DNA of 64,000 nucleotides from positions 7,258-71,257 of the forward strand of contig JAFEBA010000018.1 in NCBI GenBank assembly GCA_018266105.1. The letters run 5' to 3'. The stretch is from a bacterium (GTDB taxonomy: Bacteria > Vulcanimicrobiota > Xenobia > Xenobiales > JADMJV01). The notes under the pieces were generated by a model. It did no database searches. It was not told the DNA's origin and saw only the letters and a program-made list of their open reading frames with translations. This document shows, piece by piece, positions 6,388-35,855 of this stretch (its first letter is position 1; every line of letters starts with the position of its first letter). The position numbers and the translations under genes were made by a program.

Positions 6388-8271
6388 ATGTCCGAACTGA
6401 GCCCCATTTTGAAAACAATCCTGGAGCAATTAGGTCGGCAATTTGGGCAGGACCAGAAGCCAGTGACCACCCTGGCCTTGCTGCGTGAGTTGCGCACTCG
6501 TGGAAATTGCGGGGCCTGGAAAGTGCTTCAGCATGCCGAGCTCTTGTTTTTGGATTTACCTGAGCCTGTGGATGAGGGTGACTCAGGCATCCTGAGCACA
6601 AGCATGAAGGGTGCCTGGGTGAGCGCCGAGTTCCTGGCCAAATCTTCAAGGATGCTGGAGACCCAGCACCTGTTGCGAGGCTTGGCGCGCGAGAAGACGG
6701 GTGCGGCCGGACGCTGGCTTCGAGACAAAGGATTTGAGGAAGACCGGGTGGACTGGAGTCAGTTTTCGGACCCTCGCTCTCCGGCCGAAACACCGCCCGA
6801 TCTGTCGGGTCAACGGATGGTGCATATTTTCGGCACAATCACTTATCTTGCAATGGGTATGGATGATTTGCTGGGGCCCTTCTTTTCACTGATGGGGCTA
6901 TTATTCTTGACGCAGACGGTGGATTTGTTCAGTCGAGTCCGAGGCTGGAAGTTCGATCCAGAGCGATGCGCCCGATGCCGAACTGAACCTGAAATTCCCG
7001 CAATGCTAGATTCTGAGTCAGGCCTGTGCCGAGTTTGTGAACGCAAAGTGTTAAGCATTCCCGGTCGAAATTACCTTTTGCTCTTGCTTTTCCTAACCCT
7101 TACCTCTGCCTTCTATATGCAGCTCTACCAGCCGATTGGACTCGTACTGGCGAATTTGGGTTTGTCAATTTTACTGACCGGAGTGGCGACCTTTGTGCAT
7201 GAATTGGGCCACCTGCTGGCTGGAGTGATTGCAGGCTACCGAGTGGTGTCTCTACACCTGGGGAGCGGCGATTTGCGGAAGGGCTTCAAATTGGGGCCCA
7301 TCTGGATTTATCTGCAGGCCCAGCCTGTAGGCGGCATGGTGATGTCTCTAGCGCCTCGGACTCGAGCCCGACGTTGGCGTTCCGTGCTCTACTCGTTAGC
7401 CGGTCCGGGAGCGAACCTCTTCATGGCCTGGCTGATGTGGAAGAGCCTGGACGGACTTCCTGGACTGAATCTGAGTCAAGCCTGGTGCCAGGGATTGCAG
7501 CCAGCCTTAACCTTCTTTTACGTCAATCTGGCCATGGCCATCAATAACCTGTGGCCGCGCTATTCGGTCGCCGGAAGTCACGGTCAACTGCCCTCAGATG
7601 GTAGAGCCGCGCTCGATGCGCTGCGCGCCGGCAAGCAGGCTTCGCCCAAATTGCTTGAAACGCTCACCCTGCTTCAGGCCGGCATTTACCGGGATTTTGG
7701 CAATCACGAGGCCGAGCTTCTCTTCCTGGATGAAGCGGTGCTGGAGCCTGACCGGGCACAAAAGTTGCATCGGATGTTTCTGCTGGGCGAGTTGGAGCGT
7801 TGGGAGGAAGCTCTCGCGATCTTACCCGAATTGTTGGAGCCGGATGTCACGATGACCCCGGAGCAGCGCAGCGTGGAGTTGAACATGCTGGCCTGGTCTC
7901 AGTATATGTCCGGGGATCTCGAGCAGGCCGACCGTCTCTCCGCCGAGTGCCTGGAGTTGTTTTCGGAGTTATCCAATAATCTGGGCACCCGAGCGGAGGT
8001 GCTGGCCGCCCGTGGTCATCTGGCCGAGGCCAGGCCGATGCTGGAAAAGGCGATTCAGGTCAGCCTTTGTCACAGGTCGACGGCTCACAATTGCAAGGCC
8101 CTGGCGCGGCTGGCAGCTTTGCAGGGGGATCTGGGGGAGTTTGAACGGCTCAGCCTGTTGGGACGCAAGCTTGATCCCGAGAAGGCCGCTTATGCCTCAG
8201 CCCAAGATGCCGTGGAGGACGCCCGAGGTCGCGGCCACTGGGTGCCGAAGGCCGGCGTTGGCCCCCCTTAG
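6388..8271 (+). CDS. Membrane zinc metalloprotease, M50/site-2-protease-like, with a C-terminal TPR-like helical repeat domain (627 aa).
   Basis: HELGH zinc motif inside a hydrophobic segment (FVHELGHLLAGVIAGY). A second membrane motif, AINNLWP…SDG, resembles the S2P NxxP…LDG motif. The C-terminal 200 aa are helical-repeat-like. Confidence 0.55.
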   Translation: MSELSPILKTILEQLGRQFGQDQKPVTTLALLRELRTRGNCGAWKVLQHAELLFLDLPEPVDEGDSGILSTSMKGAWVSAEFLAKSSRMLETQHLLRGLAREKTGAAGRWLRDKGFEEDRVDWSQFSDPRSPAETPPDLSGQRMVHIFGTITYLAMGMDDLLGPFFSLMGLLFLTQTVDLFSRVRGWKFDPERCARCRTEPEIPAMLDSESGLCRVCERKVLSIPGRNYLLLLLFLTLTSAFYMQLYQPIGLVLANLGLSILLTGVATFVHELGHLLAGVIAGYRVVSLHLGSGDLRKGFKLGPIWIYLQAQPVGGMVMSLAPRTRARRWRSVLYSLAGPGANLFMAWLMWKSLDGLPGLNLSQAWCQGLQPALTFFYVNLAMAINNLWPRYSVAGSHGQLPSDGRAALDALRAGKQASPKLLETLTLLQAGIYRDFGNHEAELLFLDEAVLEPDRAQKLHRMFLLGELERWEEALAILPELLEPDVTMTPEQRSVELNMLAWSQYMSGDLEQADRLSAECLELFSELSNNLGTRAEVLAARGHLAEARPMLEKAIQVSLCHRSTAHNCKALARLAALQGDLGEFERLSLLGRKLDPEKAAYASAQDAVEDARGRGHWVPKAGVGPP

Positions 8272-19816: not shown

Positions 19817-20925
19817 TGGGCCTCCGCGCTTTTGGGTCGATAGACTTTGACATCCGGCAGGTGGTTGTAGGGACCAATTTCGGAATACTCAATGGTCGGG
19901 TTCTTGGCCCGGTCATCGTAGGTGCCCCAGCGGTCATTGGCGGCGTTGTAGACCCACTTGCGTCGGTCCACCCCACCCACTTCGTTCTGGGCGCTGCGGG
20001 TTTTCCAGTCGCCGCCGGCGCCCCAGGAGGAGTCGAGGGTGTAGACATGCACCTCGGCATTGTGGCCGGACCCCTGCCAGAATTCGTTTTTGGAATTGTG
20101 CAGCTTGGCCACTTTGTCGGCGCTCATGGTGGTGTGGTCGTAGACCGAGACCCAGTGGCCGGCTTCACCGGGGCTAGGGTCAGTGAGACGGATGATATCT
20201 CCGGCTCGGGCCCGGATCGGTTTGCCCGCCTGTTGCGGCACGCGGCTGAACTGTTCAGGCGAGAGGCTTTGCTGCAGGGAATCGCCGTTGCGGTTGACTC
20301 CGCCCAGGCCCAGGTCGCGGCCGGCGGCTTTGCTGGCCGCCTGGGCCACGTAGCCGGCGCAGTCGCTGCCCAGACCGAACTCCCATTGGAGCTTGCGAAC
20401 GCGGGCCGAATCGGTGGTATGGTCGCCGCTGGCGGGTGGGAGCTTGCCTGCGTCGATGAGGGCCTGGGTGACCAACTTGAGTTGTTCGGGAGTGGCTCGG
20501 CCCATGCCAGCGGCCGAGGCGGCCGAGCGCAGGGCCGGGTTCTGTTTGATTTCCGGTAAGGCCTCGCCGACCTTCGCCATGGTGTTGATCCGGCCCTTAG
20601 AGGGTTCTTTTCCCTCAGGGTCACTGAGGCCGCCTTCCATTTGGAACTGGGGAAAGACTTTGACGGTGCGTGGGGCCTCGCCGGGAGTATCGGACGGAAT
20701 GGTGTAGGTCGAGCGCATGCTGTTGCGAAAATCGTCCAGCCGGGCCTGGGTCACTTTCTTGTCGTAGGGGGGCACCACCGGAGCGGTGGGAGCCGTGCCA
20801 ACCAGTCCGCCCAGCGCTTCGTTGGCCGCCTGGCGCAATCTTTCGAAGGGATTGAAGCCGGCGCTCTGAGTGGCCTGGAGGCGCTGGACCGGAGAGGTTC
20901 GCTGTTCTGTGTTGATGACCGCCAT
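19813..20925 (-). CDS. NlpC/P60- or CHAP-like (papain-fold Cys/His) domain protein with a disordered N-terminal region of about 190 aa. No signal peptide.
   Basis: …GSDCAGYVAQA… and, about 60 residues later, …GDIIRLTDPSPGEAGHWVSVYDH…. Spacing and context match the NlpC/P60 catalytic Cys and the GD…(G)HVGIY His motif. Confidence 0.5.
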   Translation of the reverse strand: MAVINTEQRTSPVQRLQATQSAGFNPFERLRQAANEALGGLVGTAPTAPVVPPYDKKVTQARLDDFRNSMRSTYTIPSDTPGEAPRTVKVFPQFQMEGGLSDPEGKEPSKGRINTMAKVGEALPEIKQNPALRSAASAAGMGRATPEQLKLVTQALIDAGKLPPASGDHTTDSARVRKLQWEFGLGSDCAGYVAQAASKAAGRDLGLGGVNRNGDSLQQSLSPEQFSRVPQQAGKPIRARAGDIIRLTDPSPGEAGHWVSVYDHTTMSADKVAKLHNSKNEFWQGSGHNAEVHVYTLDSSWGAGGDWKTRSAQNEVGGVDRRKWVYNAANDRWGTYDDRAKNPTIEYSEIGPYNHLPDVKVYRPKSAEAQ

Positions 20926-21026
20926 GGCCTCAGGTTAGCGGCTGAGTGGCCTCTGGAGAGCCAAGCAGATATAAAAAAGCGACAGTGGATGTTGCCAGCA
21001 GGTAAACTGTTGTAAACAGTCCGTTG

Positions 21027-21254
21027 TTAGCAGGCTTCCGGCAGGGGATTGACTTCTCGCGAGCAGCGGGGCAGGCTGGCGGTGAGTTGACTGGCCTGGT
21101 CGGAGGCGCGCAGGATTTCGCGTAGCAGTTCGGCCCGGTCATCATTCGGGTCCAGGTCGAGCAGCAGCAGATCGGCATAGCCTTGGATGACGCTGAGCAG
21201 GTTGTTGAGTTGATGCGCCTTTTGGGCCAGTTCGGAACGAGCGGGTTGTCTCAT
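21027..21254 (-). CDS. HisKA (DHp) dimerisation/phosphoacceptor domain only (75 aa). No HATPase domain follows.
   Basis: ELAQKAHQLNNLLSVIQGYADLLLLDL is a canonical H-box. It is in the same reading frame as the upstream PAS gene, separated by one TGA plus 26 codons. Confidence 0.55.
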   Translation of the reverse strand: MRQPARSELAQKAHQLNNLLSVIQGYADLLLLDLDPNDDRAELLREILRASDQASQLTASLPRCSREVNPLPEAC

Positions 21255-21332
21255 ACTCTGGTTATGCCCTCGAGTTGATCTGTCGGCCTGGTATTTTCGA
21301 CCGACTTGGCCCCCTGGTAGATTTGTAAGAGG

Positions 21333-21893
21333 TCAGCGAGCCACCAGGGCTTCCCGGTCCAGAATTTGGTTGAGAGTTTCAAAAAAGAAGCGGTCGTACT
21401 CGGTTCCGAGGCTGGCCAGCAATCCCAGAAGATGTTGGCAGGAGGCCTCGGCCGCCTTTTTGGGGTTGCTGAAGGTGGCTTCCAGGTCCAGCATTTGTTT
21501 GTAAATGGGCTTGAGGGCCTCGATCATCTGGCGCGGAGGCAGGCGGCGGTTGCTGTGGTAGCCCACCAGCCTTCCGTCAGCGGCGTAACTGGGGGAGACA
21601 TGGGCCAGCACCCAGTAGTGGCAGCCGTCCTTGGCCAGGTTGAGCACGATCGCGAAGACTTCGTGGCCCGCGGCCAATCGGTCCCAAAGGAGTTTGAAGG
21701 CGCCTCGAGGCATGTCGGGGTGGCGGATGATGTTGTGAGGTTTGCCCAGCAGTTCGTGCTCTGGGTAGGCGGCGATTTTGCAGAAGACGCGGTTGGCGTA
21801 AGTGATAATGCCTTTGGGATCGGTCTTGCTGACAATCACTTCTTCGGGTTGGAAGACCCGCTCAATTCCATTTGGGATGACCATACTGTTCAA
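21333..21893 (-). CDS. PAS-domain sensor protein (Aer-like PAS, 186 aa).
   Basis: TDPKGIITYANRVFCKIAAYPEHELLGKPHNIIRHPDMP…KDGCHYWV is the typical PAS pattern found in Aer-type sensors. Confidence 0.75.
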   Translation of the reverse strand: MNSMVIPNGIERVFQPEEVIVSKTDPKGIITYANRVFCKIAAYPEHELLGKPHNIIRHPDMPRGAFKLLWDRLAAGHEVFAIVLNLAKDGCHYWVLAHVSPSYAADGRLVGYHSNRRLPPRQMIEALKPIYKQMLDLEATFSNPKKAAEASCQHLLGLLASLGTEYDRFFFETLNQILDREALVAR

Positions 21894-21942
21894 GTCGGCA
21901 GACTGGGCCAGAGCTTAAGCGCGCGGGGCGCGCGGGCGCAAC

Positions 21943-21966
21943 AAAAAAGCCCCGTTTCCGGGGCTT
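21943..21966 (-). terminator. Rho-independent terminator for the minus-strand gene 21990..22472.
   Basis: The reverse strand reads GCCCCGGAAACGGGGCTTTTTT: a GC-rich hairpin plus a T-tract, immediately downstream of the gene's stop. Confidence 0.6.
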
Positions 21967-21989
21967 TGCGTCAGCCTGGGGGATCGGGT

Positions 21990-22472
21990 CTATCGGGCCA
22001 CCAGGAATTCACCGGTGCATTTGGGGATACCGAAGTCGTCGGTCTGGGGCTGGCCGTCCACCATGACCAGCATATTGGATCCGATCATCCACTGGCCATT
22101 GTCGTGGATGGCGTTGAGGTAGGCGGGCGCGCCGTTGAAGACGGTGGCCATCTCAAAGGACTGCTTGTCACCACCGGTTTTGTGAATCAACACGGTCTCG
22201 GGACCGTCGCCGCAGGCCTCCAGGCTCTGGTAGGGCTTGCCCTGGAGGGCCGCCGCGGTGAGTTTGAGACTGCCTTCGGCCGGGTCATCGTCCATGCCCG
22301 GCTTGTTGTCCAGGCCGCTGATGCGCTGGACTTCTTCCAGGTTGTCGCGCAACGAGATGAACTGCATCAGCTCCATCTCCGGGCCGTGCTTCTCAGCTCC
22401 TTCGCCCAGGCTGCCGGTTTTGCGAAACCGATCGAATGCGTTTTGTACAGGTGCGGGAAGTTGGATTTTCAT
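21990..22472 (-). CDS. Hypothetical protein (160 aa).
   Basis: ORF with protein-like composition followed by its own terminator. Confidence 0.5.
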   Translation of the reverse strand: MKIQLPAPVQNAFDRFRKTGSLGEGAEKHGPEMELMQFISLRDNLEEVQRISGLDNKPGMDDDPAEGSLKLTAAALQGKPYQSLEACGDGPETVLIHKTGGDKQSFEMATVFNGAPAYLNAIHDNGQWMIGSNMLVMVDGQPQTDDFGIPKCTGEFLVAR

Positions 22473-22567: not shown

Positions 22568-23200
22568 TTAAAAGATTTTTACCGGGTTGGGCATGATTGG
22601 GACAAGACCCTGTTGGGCGGCGCTGTTGATCAATTGGCTTCGGTCCAGGGTGCCAAAAGTCTGGAAGAGTTCGCGTAGTTCCGCTTTGATGGTGCTGCAC
22701 GAGTAGTGCAGGTGGGCGGCGATTTCCTGGTTGGTTTGGCCCTGGGTCATGCCGCGCAAGATGCGCATCTGACGCAACGAGATGTAGCGTTCTTTGCGAC
22801 GCGTGCTGCGCATGGGTGCGGGCTGGCTGACCACGGCCTGAATGGCGGCCATCAGTTGGTGGGCGTCGTTTTCTTTGCTGATCATGGCGCTGGCACCGGC
22901 GCGCATGAGGCTGTGGTAGCTGAGCTGGCTCCAGTTGGGTGTCAGGGCCAGCACCGGCAGTTGCTGGTCCAACTGGCGCAGGCTGTGCAGGACTTCCAGC
23001 CCGGATTGGTCCATCAAATTGAGGGAAAGCAGCAGCAGCGAGGGCTGCAGGCTTTGGATCAGCTCCAGGCAGTGGCTGCCGGAATCGGTTTCGGCCACCA
23101 CCGAAAAACCCTGGCCGGTGAGCAGCCGTGCCAGGCCGGCCCTGAAGAGGCGATGTTCGTCGGCCAGCACCACCCGGGTGAGGCACCTCGGTGGGTTCAT
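22568..23200 (-). CDS. Two-component response regulator, NarL/FixJ (LuxR-type HTH) family.
   Basis: N-terminal receiver domain (VVLADEH…) and a C-terminal LuxR HTH (…LRQMRILRGMTQGQTNQEIAAHLHYSCSTIKAELRELF…). Confidence 0.85.
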   Translation of the reverse strand: MNPPRCLTRVVLADEHRLFRAGLARLLTGQGFSVVAETDSGSHCLELIQSLQPSLLLLSLNLMDQSGLEVLHSLRQLDQQLPVLALTPNWSQLSYHSLMRAGASAMISKENDAHQLMAAIQAVVSQPAPMRSTRRKERYISLRQMRILRGMTQGQTNQEIAAHLHYSCSTIKAELRELFQTFGTLDRSQLINSAAQQGLVPIMPNPVKIF

Positions 23201-23829
23201 ATGGCGTCCTTGAAGAGCGGATGTCTTTCCCGGGGTTGGGTCACCAGGCCCTGGATGGCAGCTTCGCAGGCCAGGTGGGTGCGGTCGGCGCAGCCCAGAG
23301 TCTGAAAGAGGGCGTTAATTTCCATTTTGACGGTGCCGCGCGAGATGTGCAGGTGGGCGGCGATCTGATCGTTGGTCAGGCCGTAAACCACCCCCTCCAG
23401 AATGCGCTGCTGGCGGGAGGTGATGTGACCGGTGCACTCGCGGGCGATGCCGGGAGTGATATAGCGGCCCCCGCCAACCACCAGACGCACGGCTTCCATC
23501 AGTTCTTCGGGGCTGGCGTTCTTGGATAGGAAGCCGTTGGCACCCGCCTCCACCGAGCTTTTGAGACGGAAGGCGGTGGCCGCGCCCGTCACCACCAGAG
23601 TGGGCACGGCCCAGCCCTGAAGGCGCAAGGAACGCAGCACCTGGACCCCGTCCATGTCCGGCAGGGCCAGGTCCAGGATCAAAAGATCGGGCCGATGGCG
23701 TTCGATCAAATCGAGCGCCTCGGCCCCGTAACTGGTTTCAGCCACCAGGTCCACACCCAGAGGGGTGAGGATACTGGCCAGGCTGGCACGCACCAGACTC
23801 TGGTCTTCTATCAGGATGGCGCGGATCAA
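23197..23829 (-). CDS. Two-component response regulator, NarL/FixJ family. ATGA overlap with the downstream paralogue.
   Basis: Receiver motifs (ILIEDQ…LLILDLALPDMDG) and a LuxR HTH (…LTNDQIAAHLHISRGTVKMEINALF…). Confidence 0.85.
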   Translation of the reverse strand: MIRAILIEDQSLVRASLASILTPLGVDLVAETSYGAEALDLIERHRPDLLILDLALPDMDGVQVLRSLRLQGWAVPTLVVTGAATAFRLKSSVEAGANGFLSKNASPEELMEAVRLVVGGGRYITPGIARECTGHITSRQQRILEGVVYGLTNDQIAAHLHISRGTVKMEINALFQTLGCADRTHLACEAAIQGLVTQPRERHPLFKDAI

Positions 23830-25707: not shown

Positions 25708-28700
25708 ATGAGAAAGACTCTTCTGGCCGCCCTGCTTTGTGGCGCCGCGGCCTGGGCTTTACCTGAGGGCGGGCAGGTGATCCAGGGCAATCTTCAGATG
25801 ACCCAGCCCTCGGCCAACATTCTGCAGATTTTACAGTCCAGCCCCAGCGGAATTATCAACTGGAATTCGTTTAGCATCGATGCTCATCAGTTGGTGCAGT
25901 TTCTCCAGCCCAATTCGGCTGCGGCCGTGCTGAATCGGGTCGTGGGGCCGGAGCCGAGTCAGATTTTAGGGCAGCTGCAGGCCAACGGCCGGGTGCTTTT
26001 AATCAATCCCAACGGAATTTTATTTGGACCTGGAAGCGTGGTGGATACCGGCAGTTTCCTGGCCTCCACGCTCTCCATTACGGATTCGGACTTTCTACAG
26101 GGACGCTATAATTTGCAGTGGGATCCCAATACGCCCATGCGGGCGGTGGTCAACCAGGGTGAAATTCGCGTGGCCGACGGGGGTTTTCTGGCGCTGGTTT
26201 CGCCGGTGGTGGACAATCAAGGCTTGTTGGTTGCCCAGGGGGGTCAGGTGGTCTTGGGGGCAACCCGCCAGGCCAGTCTGACGTTGGACGCGCGCGGTTT
26301 GTTGACGGTGGTCATGCCGGACGGTTTTCGAGGACAGAGTTCGGGCCCGCCGGAAACGGTGCTTTTGTCGCAGAACCAGATGAGCGACGCGCTGGCTCAC
26401 GTGGTGAGTCTATCCAAGCAGGCCGAATCGATTGTGGAGACACCCCAGGGAATTCGGTTGGCCGGGGCCGAGGGGCTATTACTGCATCAGGGTGAGATTC
26501 GTGCCCAAGAAGTGCGTATGGATTCCAGTCAGGCCACTTTGCTGGATGCCGACAGCCTGGTGAGCGGCTCGGACCTTCGCATTTTCTCGGCGGGATCGGC
26601 TGTCTCCATGGGGCTTTTGCAGGCTGACTTTGTGGAGCTGAGCGGGGCCAGGGTGAGTCTGACGCGGGCTCCAGAGCTGGCCACGGGTGGGGTCCTGTTG
26701 TTGGATCCGAATAACATTTTTATTCGCGATACCGGCATCGGGCCGGATGTTACCCTGAGCACTTCGCCAGGAGTGGACGTGGATGTGCAGGCCAGCGCCT
26801 TGAACGTGACGGGCGGGGTCCTGCTGCAGGCGGATCAGGATATTTCGGTCGAGGTTCCCATCAACATCGACCGCAATACGCAGTTGCGCCTGGACGCGGG
26901 GCGAAATATCGTGATGCAGCCCGGCACTTCGGTCAATATGACCGATTCGGCAGCAGTTTTTACGGCCAACGCCACCGGGGCCGTGGATGTGCGCGAGCTG
27001 ACGGTCCCAACCGTGCATGTCAATGCCGGCACGTTCGCGCGTTTTGATGGAGGCACGGTGGGGGTGGCGGGCTTGCCCACCCTGGTCAACGTGACGGCTC
27101 CCAGCGTGCGCATCGCCACCGGGAATATCACCAATGTGGTGGGTACGGATGTAAATGTGACCTTTACGGCCAAACCCGCCGCTATTCCGGACGTGGGTTT
27201 GGAGCCAGATTCGCGGCTGAACGTGCTGGGCAGCAACTCCAACAATGTGACTCTGGCGGCCCCGGGTGGCAATGCCTTTCTGGACAGTAACGCCAATCTG
27301 GCGACCAGCAATGTACTCAGCCAGGTGATGGTGAGCGGGGCCAATGTGAATATGGTGACGGGCAGTCGCATCAGCGAGCCCAATGCGGGATCCACACTGG
27401 CTATCAATTCGGTCGACAAGAGCTCGCTGACCAGTTTGGAAGTCCCAAATGTGAATCTGCACGCGGGCAGCTTCATTCAGTTTTTGGGCGGGACGCTGGG
27501 CCAGGCCGCCAGCGACACGCTGATCACGGCCCTGGCGGATACGGGCGTGGTGACCGTGTTCGCCAATCGTCAGGTCGAGGTGGTGGGCCAGAACGCCCGC
27601 CTGGATATGACTTCCACCGGTGCCAATCTGAGCTTTGCCGACAATTCCACCCTGAATTTAAACGGTTCGACCAGCAATCGGCTGAACGCCACGGCCGGGG
27701 GCAATGAGGTTTACATCGGTCAGCAAACCCGCATCAATGCTCAAGGCCCGGCCCAACTGAACTTCAATGCGCCGGCCAGCTTTGTGGTGCAGCGCAATGA
27801 TGGGTCTATCAACATCAATGGCGCTGGCAATGTGAGCATGATGGCGGCCACCAATGTGGTGGTGCAGCCCGGCAGTAGCATCACCGCCTCGCGTTTTGAC
27901 GCGGGCGCGCAGAATGTATCCTTGGAGGGCACAGCCAACGTGCCGGTAGTCAACGCCACCGCCACGGCCCTGGGAGATTTGACTCTTAGCGGACAGGTGG
28001 GTCTGGCTGGTCAGCCCTTGCTCTACACCACCTCCGGCGGAGGCGTGTTTTTACACGACCTGACGCTCCAGGCCAGTCAGGTGGACTGGACCTTGAATTC
28101 CAGCGCGCGCAACATTGAAGTGACCTTGGGAACAGTGCTGGTGGGCGGCTCCAACAACCAGGTCAGCTGGACCTCCAATGCCTTTTTTGCCTTTGACGCC
28201 AACACAGTGGTCAGAGCGGACGGAGCCAGCCGCTTCAATTTTGTGTCCACCACCTCACGTCCAATCATGTCGGCCAACAGTACCATTTCCGCCACCGACC
28301 CGGCTTCCAGCCTTGCCTTTGCCAGTCCCTTTTCGCCTCAGCTGAACCGGGTGGTTTCGGGCGGTCAGCTGACGGTAGTGGCCACCGGTGGGGCGGGGTT
28401 GAACATCACCGACCAGCTGGTGGGCAATCAGGTGAACTTGTCTACCCCGGGCCGTTTGCTGGACGCCCGCACAGACAGCACGCCGGCCATTGTGGCCAGC
28501 AGTTTGCTGAACGTGACAGCGGCCAATATCTCGGGTCCGGTGGATGTGCCCGAAGCGGGTTTGGTGAGCGCACTGGTCTTCGCCACCGGTTCCGGGGCTC
28601 AGGTGCGCTTCAATGTGACGGGTCCCAACAACACCACCCTTGGCAATCGGGCCGCCAACCTGTTTTATGCATTTCCTCAGAGCAGCGACGTGCAGATCGT

Positions 28701-29127
28701 TCATCCTTCCGGGGATGTGCTGATCTACAGCCAGCCGCCTCCGGCCAGCAGCTCGGCTCAGATGATTCGGACTCGAGATGATTTGACGGCGGCTCAGTTC
28801 CAGCAAGTCACACAACAATCGGCTCAGGCTCAGGTGCAGTTGTCGAGTTTGTTTTCGGTGGCCGATCTTCCGGCTCTCAATGATGTGTTACTGCTGGAGT
28901 ATGAGAACCCTGGACTGACCGGGCCTTATTCCATCAGCTACATGACTTCGGCGGTGGTGGAGCGGGTGGTGCTGAGCCCTGAAGATGCGGCTCGCCAGCT
29001 TGGGCGCCGCGATCGGGATCGCCTGGACCGCTCAGATGCGGTCCTGATCGCGGGCAATGACGAAGATGAGGAACTGCTTTATTGGCGGCGCCTCATTCAG
29101 GGCTTCATCATCTGGGAAGACGAGTAG
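25708..29127 (+). CDS. Two-partner-secretion exoprotein (TpsA/filamentous-haemagglutinin-like) with an N-terminal TPS secretion domain and a beta-helical repeat body (1139 aa).
   Basis: Signal peptide, then LPEGGQVIQGNLQMTQPSANILQILQSSPSGIINWNSFSIDAHQLVQFLQPNSAAAVLNRVVGPEPSQILGQLQANGRVLLINPNGILFGPGSVVDTGSFLASTLSI, which is the haemagglutination-activity (TPS) domain. The remainder is a long T/N/V/G-rich repeat region typical of beta-helix passengers. Confidence 0.85.
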   Translation: MRKTLLAALLCGAAAWALPEGGQVIQGNLQMTQPSANILQILQSSPSGIINWNSFSIDAHQLVQFLQPNSAAAVLNRVVGPEPSQILGQLQANGRVLLINPNGILFGPGSVVDTGSFLASTLSITDSDFLQGRYNLQWDPNTPMRAVVNQGEIRVADGGFLALVSPVVDNQGLLVAQGGQVVLGATRQASLTLDARGLLTVVMPDGFRGQSSGPPETVLLSQNQMSDALAHVVSLSKQAESIVETPQGIRLAGAEGLLLHQGEIRAQEVRMDSSQATLLDADSLVSGSDLRIFSAGSAVSMGLLQADFVELSGARVSLTRAPELATGGVLLLDPNNIFIRDTGIGPDVTLSTSPGVDVDVQASALNVTGGVLLQADQDISVEVPINIDRNTQLRLDAGRNIVMQPGTSVNMTDSAAVFTANATGAVDVRELTVPTVHVNAGTFARFDGGTVGVAGLPTLVNVTAPSVRIATGNITNVVGTDVNVTFTAKPAAIPDVGLEPDSRLNVLGSNSNNVTLAAPGGNAFLDSNANLATSNVLSQVMVSGANVNMVTGSRISEPNAGSTLAINSVDKSSLTSLEVPNVNLHAGSFIQFLGGTLGQAASDTLITALADTGVVTVFANRQVEVVGQNARLDMTSTGANLSFADNSTLNLNGSTSNRLNATAGGNEVYIGQQTRINAQGPAQLNFNAPASFVVQRNDGSININGAGNVSMMAATNVVVQPGSSITASRFDAGAQNVSLEGTANVPVVNATATALGDLTLSGQVGLAGQPLLYTTSGGGVFLHDLTLQASQVDWTLNSSARNIEVTLGTVLVGGSNNQVSWTSNAFFAFDANTVVRADGASRFNFVSTTSRPIMSANSTISATDPASSLAFASPFSPQLNRVVSGGQLTVVATGGAGLNITDQLVGNQVNLSTPGRLLDARTDSTPAIVASSLLNVTAANISGPVDVPEAGLVSALVFATGSGAQVRFNVTGPNNTTLGNRAANLFYAFPQSSDVQIVHPSGDVLIYSQPPPASSSAQMIRTRDDLTAAQFQQVTQQSAQAQVQLSSLFSVADLPALNDVLLLEYENPGLTGPYSISYMTSAVVERVVLSPEDAARQLGRRDRDRLDRSDAVLIAGNDEDEELLYWRRLIQGFIIWEDE

Positions 29128-33854: not shown

Positions 33855-33929
33855 TGGCTGCCCAGGTAGGGATCGAACCTACGAATGACGGATTCAGAGA
33901 CCGTTGCCTTACCACTTGGCTACTGGGCA
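33855..33929 (-). tRNA. tRNA-Gln(CTG): tRNA-Gln (anticodon CUG), with CCA encoded.
   Basis: Reverse complement: TGCCCAGTAGCCAAGTGGTAAGGCAACGGTCTCTGAATCCGTCATTCGTAGGTTCGATCCCTACCTGGGCAGCCA. The acceptor stem pairs, the T-arm reads GTAGG-TTCGATC-CCTAC, and the anticodon loop CUCUGAA gives CUG. Overall layout parallels E. coli tRNA-Gln. Confidence 0.8.
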
Positions 33930-33948
33930 ATATGACGATGTAAAAGAC

Positions 33949-34020
33949 CTGGCCAGGTTGGGATCGAACCAACGAATGCCGCTTCCAAAGAGCGGTGCCT
34001 TACCACTTGGCTACTGGCCA
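33949..34020 (-). tRNA. tRNA-Gln(TTG): tRNA-Gln (anticodon UUG).
   Basis: Reverse complement: TGGCCAGTAGCCAAGTGGTAAGGCACCGCTCTTTGGAAGCGGCATTCGTTGGTTCGATCCCAACCTGGCCAG. Anticodon stem CCGCT/AGCGG, loop CUUUGGA giving UUG, T-arm GTTGG-TTCGATC-CCAAC. Confidence 0.8.
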
Positions 34021-34061
34021 ACGAGTTGACCACGCCATACTAATGATTTTCCCCCTTCAGG

Positions 34062-35855
34062 TCAAGGCCCGCTGTGGGAGCAATTTTTGAGGATTCCGGC
34101 GACCTGGTTTTGGAGCTGGGCGGGGGTGAAAGGTTTGGCCAGGAAGTTGGCTTCACCGCGGTCGATGCCGAAGGGGGCGAGGCGGTCGTCGGTATAGCCC
34201 GAGATGAAGAGAACGGGGAGTTCGGGGCGGAGTTCTTGGGCGGATTGGGCCAGGCGGCCGCCGTCCATTTCGGGCATGACGGCGTCGGTGATGAGCAGGT
34301 CGCAGGGCCTGTGTTCGGAGAGCCAGCTGAGGGCTTTGTTCCCGTTGGCGAAGGCCTGGACGTCATATCCGAAAAGGCGCAAAAGGCGGCTGGTGAGAGC
34401 GCGAACCTGGTCGTCGTCTTCGACCAGCAGCAGTCGTCCGGAGGCGGTTTTGGGGAGCGGCTGATTGGAGCCGCTCAGGGATTCTGAGCCGTTGGGGTTG
34501 AGGCAAGGCAGGCTGAGGGTGAAGGTTGAGCCTTGGCCGGGTCGGGAGCTGACGGAGATTTTGCCGGAGTGCATGCTTACGATGCCGTGGACGGTTGAGA
34601 GGCCGAGACCGGTGCCTTCTCCCAGGGGCTTGGTGGTGTAGAAGGGTTCAAAGATGCGCGCCGCCGTGGCTTTGCTCATTCCGCAGCCGGTGTCGGAAAC
34701 GGTCCAGACCAGTTCGTCGGGCTGGCCGTAGTCCAGGCTGATGGTGAGTTTGCCGCCGGAGGGCATGGCGTCGCGGGCATTGACCACCAGGTTGAGCAGC
34801 ACCTGTTGCAAGCGCATGTTGTCGCCTTCGACCTGGGCGTTGGGGCAGTTGAGATGGCTGATCAACTGGATGTCCTCTCCAATCAGGCGGTGCACCATCT
34901 TGAGAGAGTCTTGCAGCAGTTTTTGGAGCTTGATGGGCCGCATCTTGAGCACTTCTTTGCGGCTGAAGGCCAGCAGGTGTCCGGTTACCTCGGCTGCACG
35001 TTTGGCGGCCGATTCAGCGTCGTCGATGTATTCACTCGACTCGGATTGCTCCGGGGTACAGGTGCGGATGAGTTCCAGGTTGCCCATGATCACGGTGAGC
35101 AGGTTGTTGAAGTCGTGGGCCACGCCGCCGGCCAGGCGGCCGAGCGACTCCATTTTTTGGGACTGGGTCAGCTGATCTTGGAGTTTCTGCTGGTCCTGGT
35201 GGGCGGCGTGTAGTTCGGCGGTGCGTTGCTCGACCCGGGAATCCAGGGTGCGGCGCATGGTTTCGGATTCCTCCAGAGCCGCACCCAGGTCGCGCACCAG
35301 GTTGAACTGGCGCACCGAGATGCGTAACCGCAGAGCCATGGCGGTGATGGCCACCAGTTGAATGCCGACCAACTTGGTGACTTCGGCCAGCAGTTCGCTA
35401 AAGGGTAGGGAGTGGAAAACGGCCAGCCAGCACAGCCAGACCAGGACCCAGCTCAAGATGGACCGTTTCCAGGAGATTTCAGCAAAGGCCACGCCCAGGA
35501 GCATGACGGTGCAATAGACGCCGAAAGGCCCGCTGAGACCAGCCGCCGCCGTGCATAAGCCGGAGATGAGACAGGCCACCAGCAGGACCGAGGCATATAG
35601 ATCAAAGCGTTGCACGGGGAAGCGACGGGCGCTGAGATGGCGGGCAAAGAAAATCGCCCCCAGGATGAACGTGATTTTTTGGGCGACCAGCAGGTAGAGA
35701 AATCGCTGTGGAGCGGTCATGACCACCACCACGGTGGCGAAAGCAAAATAGAAGGCAGCCGCGATCACCAGTGGGCGAAGTCCGTCCAGGCCGACCGAGC
35801 GCATGTAGTCTCGCGGGCAGGTCAGATTCTGCTGACTGAATTTGCGCAAGCTCAC
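34062..35855 (-). CDS. Hybrid sensor histidine kinase: multi-TM sensor, HisKA, HATPase_c and a C-terminal receiver domain.
   Basis: H-box VAHDFNNLLTVIMGNLELI; G-boxes DTGCGM and GLGLS; receiver LLLVEDDDQVR…DLLITDAVMPEMDG…ISGY; several N-terminal TM helices. Confidence 0.9.
   Translation of the reverse strand: MSLRKFSQQNLTCPRDYMRSVGLDGLRPLVIAAAFYFAFATVVVVMTAPQRFLYLLVAQKITFILGAIFFARHLSARRFPVQRFDLYASVLLVACLISGLCTAAAGLSGPFGVYCTVMLLGVAFAEISWKRSILSWVLVWLCWLAVFHSLPFSELLAEVTKLVGIQLVAITAMALRLRISVRQFNLVRDLGAALEESETMRRTLDSRVEQRTAELHAAHQDQQKLQDQLTQSQKMESLGRLAGGVAHDFNNLLTVIMGNLELIRTCTPEQSESSEYIDDAESAAKRAAEVTGHLLAFSRKEVLKMRPIKLQKLLQDSLKMVHRLIGEDIQLISHLNCPNAQVEGDNMRLQQVLLNLVVNARDAMPSGGKLTISLDYGQPDELVWTVSDTGCGMSKATAARIFEPFYTTKPLGEGTGLGLSTVHGIVSMHSGKISVSSRPGQGSTFTLSLPCLNPNGSESLSGSNQPLPKTASGRLLLVEDDDQVRALTSRLLRLFGYDVQAFANGNKALSWLSEHRPCDLLITDAVMPEMDGGRLAQSAQELRPELPVLFISGYTDDRLAPFGIDRGEANFLAKPFTPAQLQNQVAGILKNCSHSGP

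Follow-up and report, generated by a model that had tools for sequence, protein, structure and literature searches.

Spo0B and ChpT are dimeric hairpins resembling the dimerization and histidine phosphotransfer (DHp) domain of sensor kinases; they carry a phospho-His, are not autokinases, shuttle phosphoryl groups between receiver domains and keep a degenerate alpha/beta domain that resembles a catalytic and ATP-binding (CA) domain. RetS is a large multi-domain kinase-like protein. Mutagenesis of CrdS, HK853 and two NtrB homologues showed that the Glu or Asp directly after the phospho-acceptor His of the H-box (position H+1) is needed solely for kinase activity, and that the Thr or Asn at H+4 is needed solely for phosphatase activity (Willett & Kirby 2012, PMC3510030); in EnvZ and CrdS the His merely enhances phosphatase activity (PMC3510030). 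As summarized in PMC3510030, through which we cite the work on DHp ('domain A') fragments by Zhu et al. 2000 and Kramer & Weiss 1999, the DHp domains of EnvZ and NtrB, when isolated, need no other part of the kinase to act as phosphatases, and their phenotype in vivo is that of a constitutive phosphatase. Proteins with HisKA and no HATPase are classed in P2CS as 'possible incomplete histidine kinases'; they are uncharacterized, and phosphoacceptor, phosphotransfer or phosphatase roles have been proposed for them (PMC5847659). Here we analyzed a 64,000-nt stretch of a genome assigned to the Vulcanimicrobiota (positions 7,258 to 71,257 of contig JAFEBA010000018.1; hereafter the window), in which a PAS gene is followed, in the same frame past its TGA stop, by an open reading frame (ORF) for a 75-residue HisKA-only protein, hereafter the mini-protein.

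Taken as a whole, the locus is best explained as two complete and independent genes whose common frame is coincidental, and we hold this explanation with considerable confidence. As a case of recoding, of a broken gene or of a split kinase the locus is ordinary; its interest rests in the family of DHp-only proteins and in the module upstream of their genes, both of them real features by good evidence. We further propose, tentatively and at somewhat less than even confidence, that the mini-protein is a natural, autonomously transcribed DHp-hairpin 'transmitter core', which would act as a freely diffusing response-regulator phosphatase or phosphoryl shuttle and might be gated in trans by the CetB-type redox PAS protein encoded next to it.

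The PAS gene, the DHp gene and the stop codon between them

The PAS ORF runs on the minus strand from TTG 21893 or, likelier, ATG 21884 to 21336 and is closed by TGA at 21335-21333. The 78 nt that follow (21332-21255) keep the PAS frame as 26 sense codons (PLTNLPGGQVGRKYQADRSTRGHNQS), and the DHp ORF then extends on the same strand from ATG 21254 to TAA 21029-21027 (75 aa). Pfam placed PAS in the first ORF (E = 1.1e-12) and HisKA in the second (E = 4.5e-9; 36.7 bits vs a cut-off of 26.9), and gave no match, HATPase_c included, for the downstream ORFs of 370 aa and 143 aa. We also searched 40 full-length kinases with phmmer against all 683 stop-to-stop six-frame ORFs of the window. The single CA domain detected belongs to a complete hybrid kinase (HisKA-HATPase_c-REC; 34062-35855, minus strand) ~13 kb away, whose DHp domain is just 31% identical to the mini-protein, and no orphan HATPase_c ORF, which could be a CA-only partner for a split kinase, was present in the 64-kb window. 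An earlier sequence-only reading had described the PAS ORF ending in TGA, the 26 in-frame sense codons and the 75-aa HisKA-only ORF, as well as the lack of an ATPase domain downstream; the first is confirmed by the sequence together with Pfam, and the second by Pfam and phmmer. That reading had also taken the locus to look like one PAS-DHp gene with a nonsense codon, and the evidence below leads elsewhere.

A homology search with the PAS protein returned 7,671 significant relatives, and length and end statistics were taken from the best 120 of these. All 120 were stand-alone proteins of 172-240 aa (median 181) with a query coverage of 87-98%; local BLASTP placed the subject end a median of 4 and a maximum of 25 residues beyond the alignment, just after a common C-terminal motif, Y-D-(E/R)-F-x-F, and none of the 120 ran on into HisKA. 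The orthologous stop falls at the same alignment position and is TGA in locus L001 (85% identical, from a Vulcanimicrobiota metagenome-assembled genome (MAG)) and TAA in locus L007 (...EAVGAR*). With TAA at this site in L007, selenocysteine and TGA-specific read-through are excluded, and there is no need to invoke a sequencing error or a nonsense mutation. The TGA of the PAS gene is the family's normal stop and not a nonsense mutation.

A fused PAS-DHp product, whether obtained by programmed TGA read-through, selenocysteine insertion, TGA recoding or correction of a sequencing error, is accordingly an extremely improbable outcome. What speaks for it is an in-frame TGA followed by 26 open codons and a spacer that is likewise in frame and open in L007; the TAA of that same locus speaks against it, as do the agreement of independent assemblies on the position of the stop and the interchange of TGA, TAA and TAG at the end of the DHp gene. 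The 84 nt 3' of the TGA folded at -22.8 kcal/mol (z = -1.64, equaled by 16 of 200 shuffles) in a general folding calculation, which is not a dedicated model of the selenocysteine insertion sequence (SECIS). No tRNA-Sec was found in the 64-kb window, which is weak evidence given that span.

The closest PAS homologues, P0001 and P0003, are both 183 aa long and begin MVTPNG... or its equivalent, and because their lengths and starts agree we favored ATG 21884 as the PAS start. With 183 or 186 aa, the protein has the single-domain size of the CetB/Aer type (~165-190 aa). Its best solved relative was the PAS domain of E. coli Aer (8DIK; E = 1.5e-25, residues 18-133), and its pattern H53-N54-x2-R57...F66...W70...N85 aligned with H54, N55, R58, F67, W71 and N86 of Magnetospirillum CetB2, the residues in contact with flavin adenine dinucleotide (FAD) (PMC12442639). 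The upstream gene thus reads as an ordinary member of the CetB/Aer family and a predicted flavin PAS sensor. Because a terminator ends the 160-aa gene upstream of it (Table 1), the PAS gene opens a new transcription unit. In L001 (7985-8003) the PAS ATG lies 6 nt past GCCGATAAC, with a -10-like GATAAC, a layout that suggests a leaderless transcript; the counterpart in the window (21884-21902, minus strand), GCCGACTTGAACAGT-ATG, is less clear. Rfam gave a weak match to asX2, a Xanthomonas small RNA (sRNA), at 21914-21966 on the plus strand (24.8 bits vs a gathering score of 70); being sub-threshold and overlapping the terminator hairpin of the 160-aa gene, it is probably a chance hit and was set aside.

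The mini-protein is identical to the NCBI entry 'hypothetical protein JST97_09340 [bacterium]' (P0121), which a word-indexed search returned together with three relatives of 65-75 aa; an exact-sequence look-up gave no entry for the 75-aa ORF, which we take for an indexing quirk and not for evidence. Further short proteins (62-68 aa, and one called as 104 aa) came from an exhaustive HMMER search, and all of them scored above every full-length kinase. The resulting family comprises 8 clusters from 8 distinct loci, with lengths of 62-75 aa and with starts and stops that coincide in the alignment; the 104-aa version of L010 (P0127) is a gene call that merely runs through the upstream element from an earlier ATG. 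To date the family spans the MAG of the window, one further Vulcanimicrobiota MAG and a few metagenome contigs. The mini-protein is also 47-58% identical to the DHp domains of many full-length kinases.

The surroundings of the DHp gene differ among the loci. L007 is syntenic with the window (160-aa ORF, PAS, DHp, 368-aa ORF and 143-aa ORF) and has a spacer of 51 nt. In L001 a Pro-rich ORF stands between the PAS and DHp genes, and the DHp ATG lies 668 nt past the PAS stop and out of frame. Elsewhere the DHp gene comes after a GntR-aminotransferase gene (L008), has hypothetical genes on one side and a convergent G6PD gene on the other (L010), stands beside a divergent Usp gene and an OmpR-type regulator (L096) or occupies other, unrelated contexts (L011 and L012). 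In L008, L010, L012 and L096 the 1 kb around the DHp gene contained no PAS gene, and L011 offers just ~470 nt of upstream sequence. The inserted Pro-rich ORF of L001 (8680-9117; 113-145 aa) has no Pfam match, and its stop directly abuts box 1 of the element described below.

The DHp stop codon is TAA in the window, TGA in L007 and L008 and TAG in L001, in each case after a conserved C-terminal Cys, and this alternation shows TGA to be an ordinary stop in the lineage. The Nei-Gojobori method, applied to 21 pairs of seven loci, gave ratios of nonsynonymous to synonymous substitution (dN/dS) of 0.11-0.59 for the DHp gene (median ~0.25) at dS ~0.7-3, indicating clear purifying selection on the mini-protein. 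Judged from these alignments, the DHp ORF is a separate gene under purifying selection. The orthologues have the same two-ORF arrangement with a proper start for the DHp ORF, which speaks for separate genes, and neither a sense codon in place of the TGA nor a fused ORF was seen in them, the stops being TGA in L001 and TAA in L007. The terminal Cys is the last residue in 4 of the 8 mini-proteins (...PEAC*, ...SEAC*, ...KAC*: window 21027-21041 on the minus strand, L007, L001 and L008), where it comes after a variable, disordered tail; the other four members end without it. This Cys could mean redox chemistry, metal binding or modification.

The common frame itself carries little information. 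At this composition the probability that 26 codons stay open is 0.33-0.45, which a factor of 1/3 for phase brings to ~0.11-0.15, and a second reading frame of the 78-nt spacer is likewise open. The open, in-frame spacer is statistically unremarkable, and with chance at this level a frame that runs on past a stop codon says little in favor of one gene.

The DNA element upstream of the DHp gene

Alignment of seven loci, together with L096, revealed an element of the form (A/T)TACCAG-N18-GGGCATAA upstream of the DHp gene in all eight (coordinates in the window are 21255-21332 on the minus strand; in the others, L001 9114-9220, L007 1463-1513, L008 2436-2540, L010 3645-3713, L011 430-473, L012 5953-6000 and L096 1948-2018). 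The invariant blocks are ...GA(C/A)(G/A)AA(A/T)ATACCAG(G/T)C... and GGGGCATAA(C/T). The gap between CAG and GGG is exactly 18 nt of non-conserved letters in the seven aligned loci and in L096. The ATACCAG core of box 2 is invariant in the seven and reads TTACCAG in L096, and GGGCATAA is invariant in all eight, with the -10-like CATAAC replaced by CATAAT in L010 and L096. Four loci (the window, L001, L008 and L010) keep box 1, an upstream repeat of the box 2 motif; 23-26 nt separate the two boxes there, a distance that differs by 1-3 nt between loci.

The reading frame across this element is not kept. A 1-nt indel separates aligned loci between box 1 and box 2; in L001 a TGA stands between boxes 2 and 3 in the frame of the ATG, and box 3 of L008 does not share the frame of the ATG, in which it holds a TAA. 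These frame shifts and stops indicate conservation as DNA and not as protein, and the '26 sense codons' are therefore non-coding, carrying the upstream element that belongs to the DHp gene.

The single-gene interpretation is refuted: the PAS protein ends where its family ends, the orthologous stop is TAA in L007, the DHp protein is conserved separately and the spacer is a DNA element. A pseudogenized sensor kinase, in which an ancestral PAS-DHp(-CA) gene was interrupted by a nonsense codon and its ATPase domain disappeared, has next to no chance of being correct. It would explain the common frame and the open spacer, and PAS-HisKA proteins without HATPase do exist in archaea (PMC5847659). However, the PAS protein has the full length usual in its family, another gene separates PAS and DHp in L001, the spacer shows conservation at the DNA level with differences that break the frame, and no fused homologue occurred among the 120 PAS or 150 DHp matches inspected. 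The dN/dS of ~0.25, together with boundaries conserved in eight loci with unrelated neighbors, is likewise not that of a decaying gene. The other explanations offered by the sequence-only reading fare no better, sequencing error failing on the orthologous stops at the same position (TAA in L007) and programmed TGA read-through on that TAA and on a spacer frame that is not preserved.

The 64-kb window contains a single copy of the full element pattern, for which 100 shuffles gave 0 matches at up to 3 mismatches. RNAalifold found no conserved RNA structure (-1.6 kcal/mol, no covarying pair), so that the element is not a riboswitch or structured leader, and Rfam returned nothing relevant for 20800-22100. 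In 5 of the 8 loci the ATG stands 5-6 nt past box 3, and CATAAC or CATAAT would then sit at -12 to -7 as counted from the A of this start codon; in L001, L008 and L096 a leader of ~30-33 nt with GAGG or AAGGAG, a Shine-Dalgarno-like motif, lies between box 3 and the ATG. This arrangement suggests that the DHp mRNA of the window may be leaderless. Because its two halves keep a constant spacing, lie where a promoter would and travel with the gene, we infer that the element is a promoter or operator, and in that role it would give a leaderless DHp transcript in the window.

Several candidate identities were tried and set aside. By eye, the sigma-54, sigma-28, sigma-B and extracytoplasmic function (ECF) consensus sequences did not fit the element, and the NarL heptamer TACYYMT agreed with TACCAGG at 4 of 7 positions. 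A search for AAWATACCAGGC-N16-GGGCATAA in GTDB representative genomes gave two matches only, both in Treponema MAGs; these lie inside unrelated coding sequence and were taken as chance, the lineage of the window being apparently absent from that collection. The same pattern gave 0 matches in JGI metagenome contigs. The element may reflect promoter architecture in a little-known phylum, and as a conserved upstream sequence it offers a first handle on that architecture.

Predicted action of the mini-protein and its candidate partners

The window H-box reads A-H-Q-L-N-N-L-L, with His14 encoded at 21213-21215, and the N-terminal peptide of the mini-protein, as a separate gene, is MRQPARSELAQK. Across the family the H-box is (A/V/I)-H-(Q/T/K)-L-N-N-L-L, in which the His, the Asn at H+3 and the Asn at H+4 are invariant and H+1 is Gln, Thr or Lys (8/8 in each case). 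In contrast, H+1 was Asp or Glu in 130 of 136 H-boxes (96%) of full-length relatives found with the same query. A protein-profile scan of JGI metagenome contigs yielded 80 loci; the 41 inspected were all full-length HDFNN-type kinases with an acidic H+1, and no new mini-protein was among them. Only 4-13 residues precede the H-box helix in the mini-proteins, the PAS domain being on a separate protein, and the ORF ends 61 residues past the His, so that the CA domain is absent, with the same boundaries in all 8 clusters. AlphaFold2, run as a monomer on the eight-sequence alignment, gave a helix at 5-31, a seven-residue loop, a second helix at 39-59 and a disordered tail of 16 residues (mean pLDDT 84). 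On this model the mini-protein is predicted to be a DHp helical hairpin.

The H-box shows the residue pattern defined by mutagenesis of CrdS, HK853, EnvZ and NtrB, and reads as a kinase-minus/phosphatase-plus signature. As a homodimer, the mini-protein would build a four-helix bundle to which receiver domains dock. Autophosphorylation is not to be expected of it, since it has no CA domain and carries Gln, Thr or Lys in place of the H+1 acid. It retains the His and, at H+4, the Asn specific to phosphatase activity, and would remove or accept the phosphoryl groups of receiver domains. From the missing CA domain and the non-acidic H+1, combined with the retained His and H+4 Asn, we infer a dedicated response-regulator phosphatase or phosphoryl sink, a natural counterpart of the engineered EnvZ and NtrB DHp fragments; this is a role that seems possible to us and that we would put slightly below an even chance.

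The invariant His14 (8/8) bears equally on a phosphotransferase resembling Spo0B or ChpT, in which His14 would take a phosphoryl group from the REC domain of a hybrid kinase and pass it to terminal regulators. Loss of the H+1 acid is expected where no CA domain phosphorylates the protein (PMC3510030), and a phosphoacceptor or phosphotransfer role has been raised for 'HisKA, no HATPase' proteins (Galperin et al. 2018, PMC5847659). Among the products of the window are an HDFNN-subfamily hybrid HisKA-CA-REC kinase and orphan NarL-type regulators; Pfam detected no Hpt domain in the 33 window ORFs submitted to it. However, this view is limited to 64 kb, and an ordinary Hpt protein may exist elsewhere in the genome. 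The mini-protein also does without the C-terminal CA-like domain that Spo0B and ChpT keep, and its genes show no conserved linkage to hybrid kinases. We consider such a phosphotransferase doubtful, although it deserves a place among the alternatives.

The resemblance to DHp domains of full-length kinases (47-58% identity) would also suit an anti-kinase 'poison subunit', which would form a heterodimer with the DHp domain of an HDFNN-type kinase and silence it as RetS blocks GacS. The top structural match, which was not significant, was the RetS-GacS DHp co-complex 7N0E, and a small protein, autonomously expressed by prediction and with no fixed genomic partner, fits the role. Yet a pure dimerization poison needs neither an invariant His nor the NN motif, and identity to the sole kinase of the window is just 31%. 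We regard this possibility as quite improbable.

A fourth possibility, which is not exclusive of the others, is a non-covalent pair: the CetB-type PAS protein would bind the mini-protein in trans and gate it by redox state, making a functionally 'split' sensor. The two genes adjoin in the window and in L007 and are one gene apart in L001, no terminator was found between them, and CetB-type PAS proteins signal to a separate partner, as CetB binds CetA (PMC12442639). In L006 (8001-9731), a PAS homologue with 69% identity is followed 4 nt on by a 393-aa protein with an MCP-signal domain, a bipartite layout like that of cetBA; this pair shows that PAS proteins of the window type signal in trans to differing partners. 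P0128, a hybrid kinase of 750 aa, fuses an HQLNN-type segment to two PAS domains. The segment is N-terminal (residues 33-73), DHp-like, 51% identical to the mini-protein, non-acidic at H+1 and uncalled by Pfam, and stands ahead of PAS-PAS-HisKA-HATPase_c-REC; this single fusion hints that such modules work with PAS-containing hybrid kinases. On the other side, 4 of the 8 loci have no PAS gene within 1 kb and L011 has too little sequence to judge, an upstream element of its own accompanies the DHp gene everywhere, the enormous PAS family almost never has a DHp neighbor, and the three PAS-linked loci are close relatives in which adjacency may be inherited synteny. On balance, the pair seems to us unlikely. 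The 'genuine split system' of the sequence-only reading thus survives in part: a real DHp protein without a catalytic domain exists, but 'split' overstates its link to PAS, since most members have no PAS gene nearby.

Several observations weigh against the interpretation we prefer, namely two independent genes, the second with a promoter-like element and a product acting as phosphatase or phosphoryl sink. In two of the three PAS-linked loci (the window and L007) the spacer is both in frame and open, which we attribute to chance plus shared ancestry. The family comprises just 8 clusters, a matter of sampling, and scans of GTDB representative genomes and JGI metagenomes added no further members. 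A sigma-70 consensus scan found no promoter in the spacer, and the 22 nt between the ATACCA-like and CATAAC hexamers are too long for a standard sigma-70 promoter. The top-ranked PDB matches of the model were DHp domains (GacS/RetS (7N0E), ZraS and ERS1), but at a Foldseek E of ~1 they were not significant, as expected because the hairpin has just 55 residues; the family profile had no match among PDB sequences. No conserved gene neighbor that would name a client regulator was found across the DHp loci. The function of the family is read from motifs alone, and phosphotransfer would account for the strictly conserved His no less well than phosphatase activity would.

Should the mini-protein prove to be a dedicated phosphatase or phosphotransferase, it would be natural proof that DHp alone is a functional signaling unit, and it would offer both a very small tool for damping two-component pathways and an easy system for studying DHp-receiver recognition without a CA domain. 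It would also be the smallest known two-component signaling protein, with its own, possibly leaderless promoter module, in Vulcanimicrobiota-related bacteria.

As candidate clients we can name, speculatively, the orphan NarL-type regulator at 23197-23829 or the REC domains of HDFNN-type hybrid kinases. In this regulator Pfam recognized Response_reg (3.7e-25) and GerE (1.4e-11), and the phospho-acceptor motif is LLILDLALPD. Its gene overlaps by 4 nt that of the second regulator, in which Ser takes the place of the Asp (LLLLSLNL and LLLISLSL vs LLILDLAL in the alignment with the L001 orthologue). The same regulator pair lies upstream of the PAS gene in L001, and no kinase gene adjoins the pair in the window or in L001. 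The pseudo-receiver is conserved in L001 (6309-6908), where it is again paired with a canonical paralogue. The coordinates of these and the preceding features are collected in Table 1.

Table 1. Positions of the genes and DNA features discussed, numbered from the first letter of the window
Feature	Positions	Strand	Basis or remark
Free-standing Aer/CetB-type (FAD-type) PAS gene, predicted	21333..21884	-	183 aa from ATG 21884; 186 aa from TTG 21893
Native TGA stop of the PAS gene	21333..21335	-	Orthologues stop at the same alignment position
Intergenic spacer, 78 nt, non-coding, with DHp upstream element	21255..21332	-	Alignment of 7 loci + L096
Box 1 ACAAATCTACCAGG, upstream repeat of box 2 motif	21313..21326	-	In 4/8 loci
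Box 2 GTCGAAAATACCAGGCC, distal half of promoter-like element	21285..21301	-	ATACCAG core conserved
Box 3 GGGCATAACC, -10-like half CATAAC	21260..21269	-	GGGCATAA invariant 8/8
DHp-only (HisKA-only) mini-protein gene, 75 aa	21027..21254	-	Pfam HisKA; 8-cluster family
Intrinsic terminator of upstream 160-aa gene	21946..21967	-	9-bp stem with 6 G-C pairs, then T-tract
Orphan NarL/FixJ-type regulator, REC + GerE	23197..23829	-	Pfam; canonical phospho-Asp
Second REC + GerE regulator, pseudo-receiver	22568..23200	-	Pfam; Ser for phospho-acceptor Asp

Farther out, two tandem tRNA-Gln genes (CTG and TTG anticodons; 33855-34021, minus strand) lie directly downstream of the hybrid kinase. Large proteins with a two-partner secretion (TPS) domain and CPT/AAA_33-like kinase genes are found near the region of the response regulators and PAS gene both in the window (25708-29127, plus strand) and in L001 (13150-16552, minus strand), the two loci keeping overall synteny with local rearrangements. 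Pfam recognized no domain in many of the neighboring ORFs (934 aa, 1029 aa, 602 aa and others).

Comparison with described systems

The upstream PAS protein compares most closely with CetB of Campylobacter jejuni and CetB1-5 of Magnetospirillum, with which it shares the free-standing Aer-type PAS form (~170-190 aa) and the FAD-contact residues. It differs in genomic setting: no CetA-like chemoreceptor gene adjoins the PAS gene of the window, whose neighbors are the genes for the 160-aa hypothetical protein and for the DHp protein. Orphan CetB paralogues without a CetA partner are known, CetB5 being an example (PMC12442639).

Set beside a sensor histidine kinase with HisKA and HATPase_c, the mini-protein has the phospho-acceptor His but lacks the CA domain and the acid at H+1. 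The RetS-GacS pair is a case of DHp-on-DHp regulation, and its complex 7N0E was the top-ranked, non-significant structural neighbor of our model. Compared with Spo0B and ChpT, no sequence similarity was detected; the mini-protein matches Pfam HisKA directly and consists of two helices and a tail only.

The isolated DHp fragments of EnvZ and NtrB come nearer, having the same HisKA hairpin of ~60-70 residues, no CA domain and the H-x-x-x-(T/N) motif. However, they are laboratory truncations of bifunctional kinases that keep the acidic H+1, whereas the mini-protein, whose activity is predicted, is the product of a natural, free-standing gene with its own conserved upstream element and has Gln, Thr or Lys at H+1.

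With the 'HisKA, no HATPase' class the mini-protein shares a HisKA-like domain, the conserved His and the lack of an ATPase domain. Its described members come from archaea and combine several domains, with PAS or GAF sensors at the N terminus (PMC5847659), whereas the mini-protein is a bare bacterial DHp of 62-75 aa; an imagined PAS-DHp fusion would match the class, but that fusion is not present at the locus. In the literature searched, whose coverage was incomplete, we found no description of a natural bare DHp protein, and wider searching led solely to this archaeal class. These comparisons indicate that the mini-protein family is modestly new, a minimal case of the recognized category of HisKA proteins without an ATPase domain.

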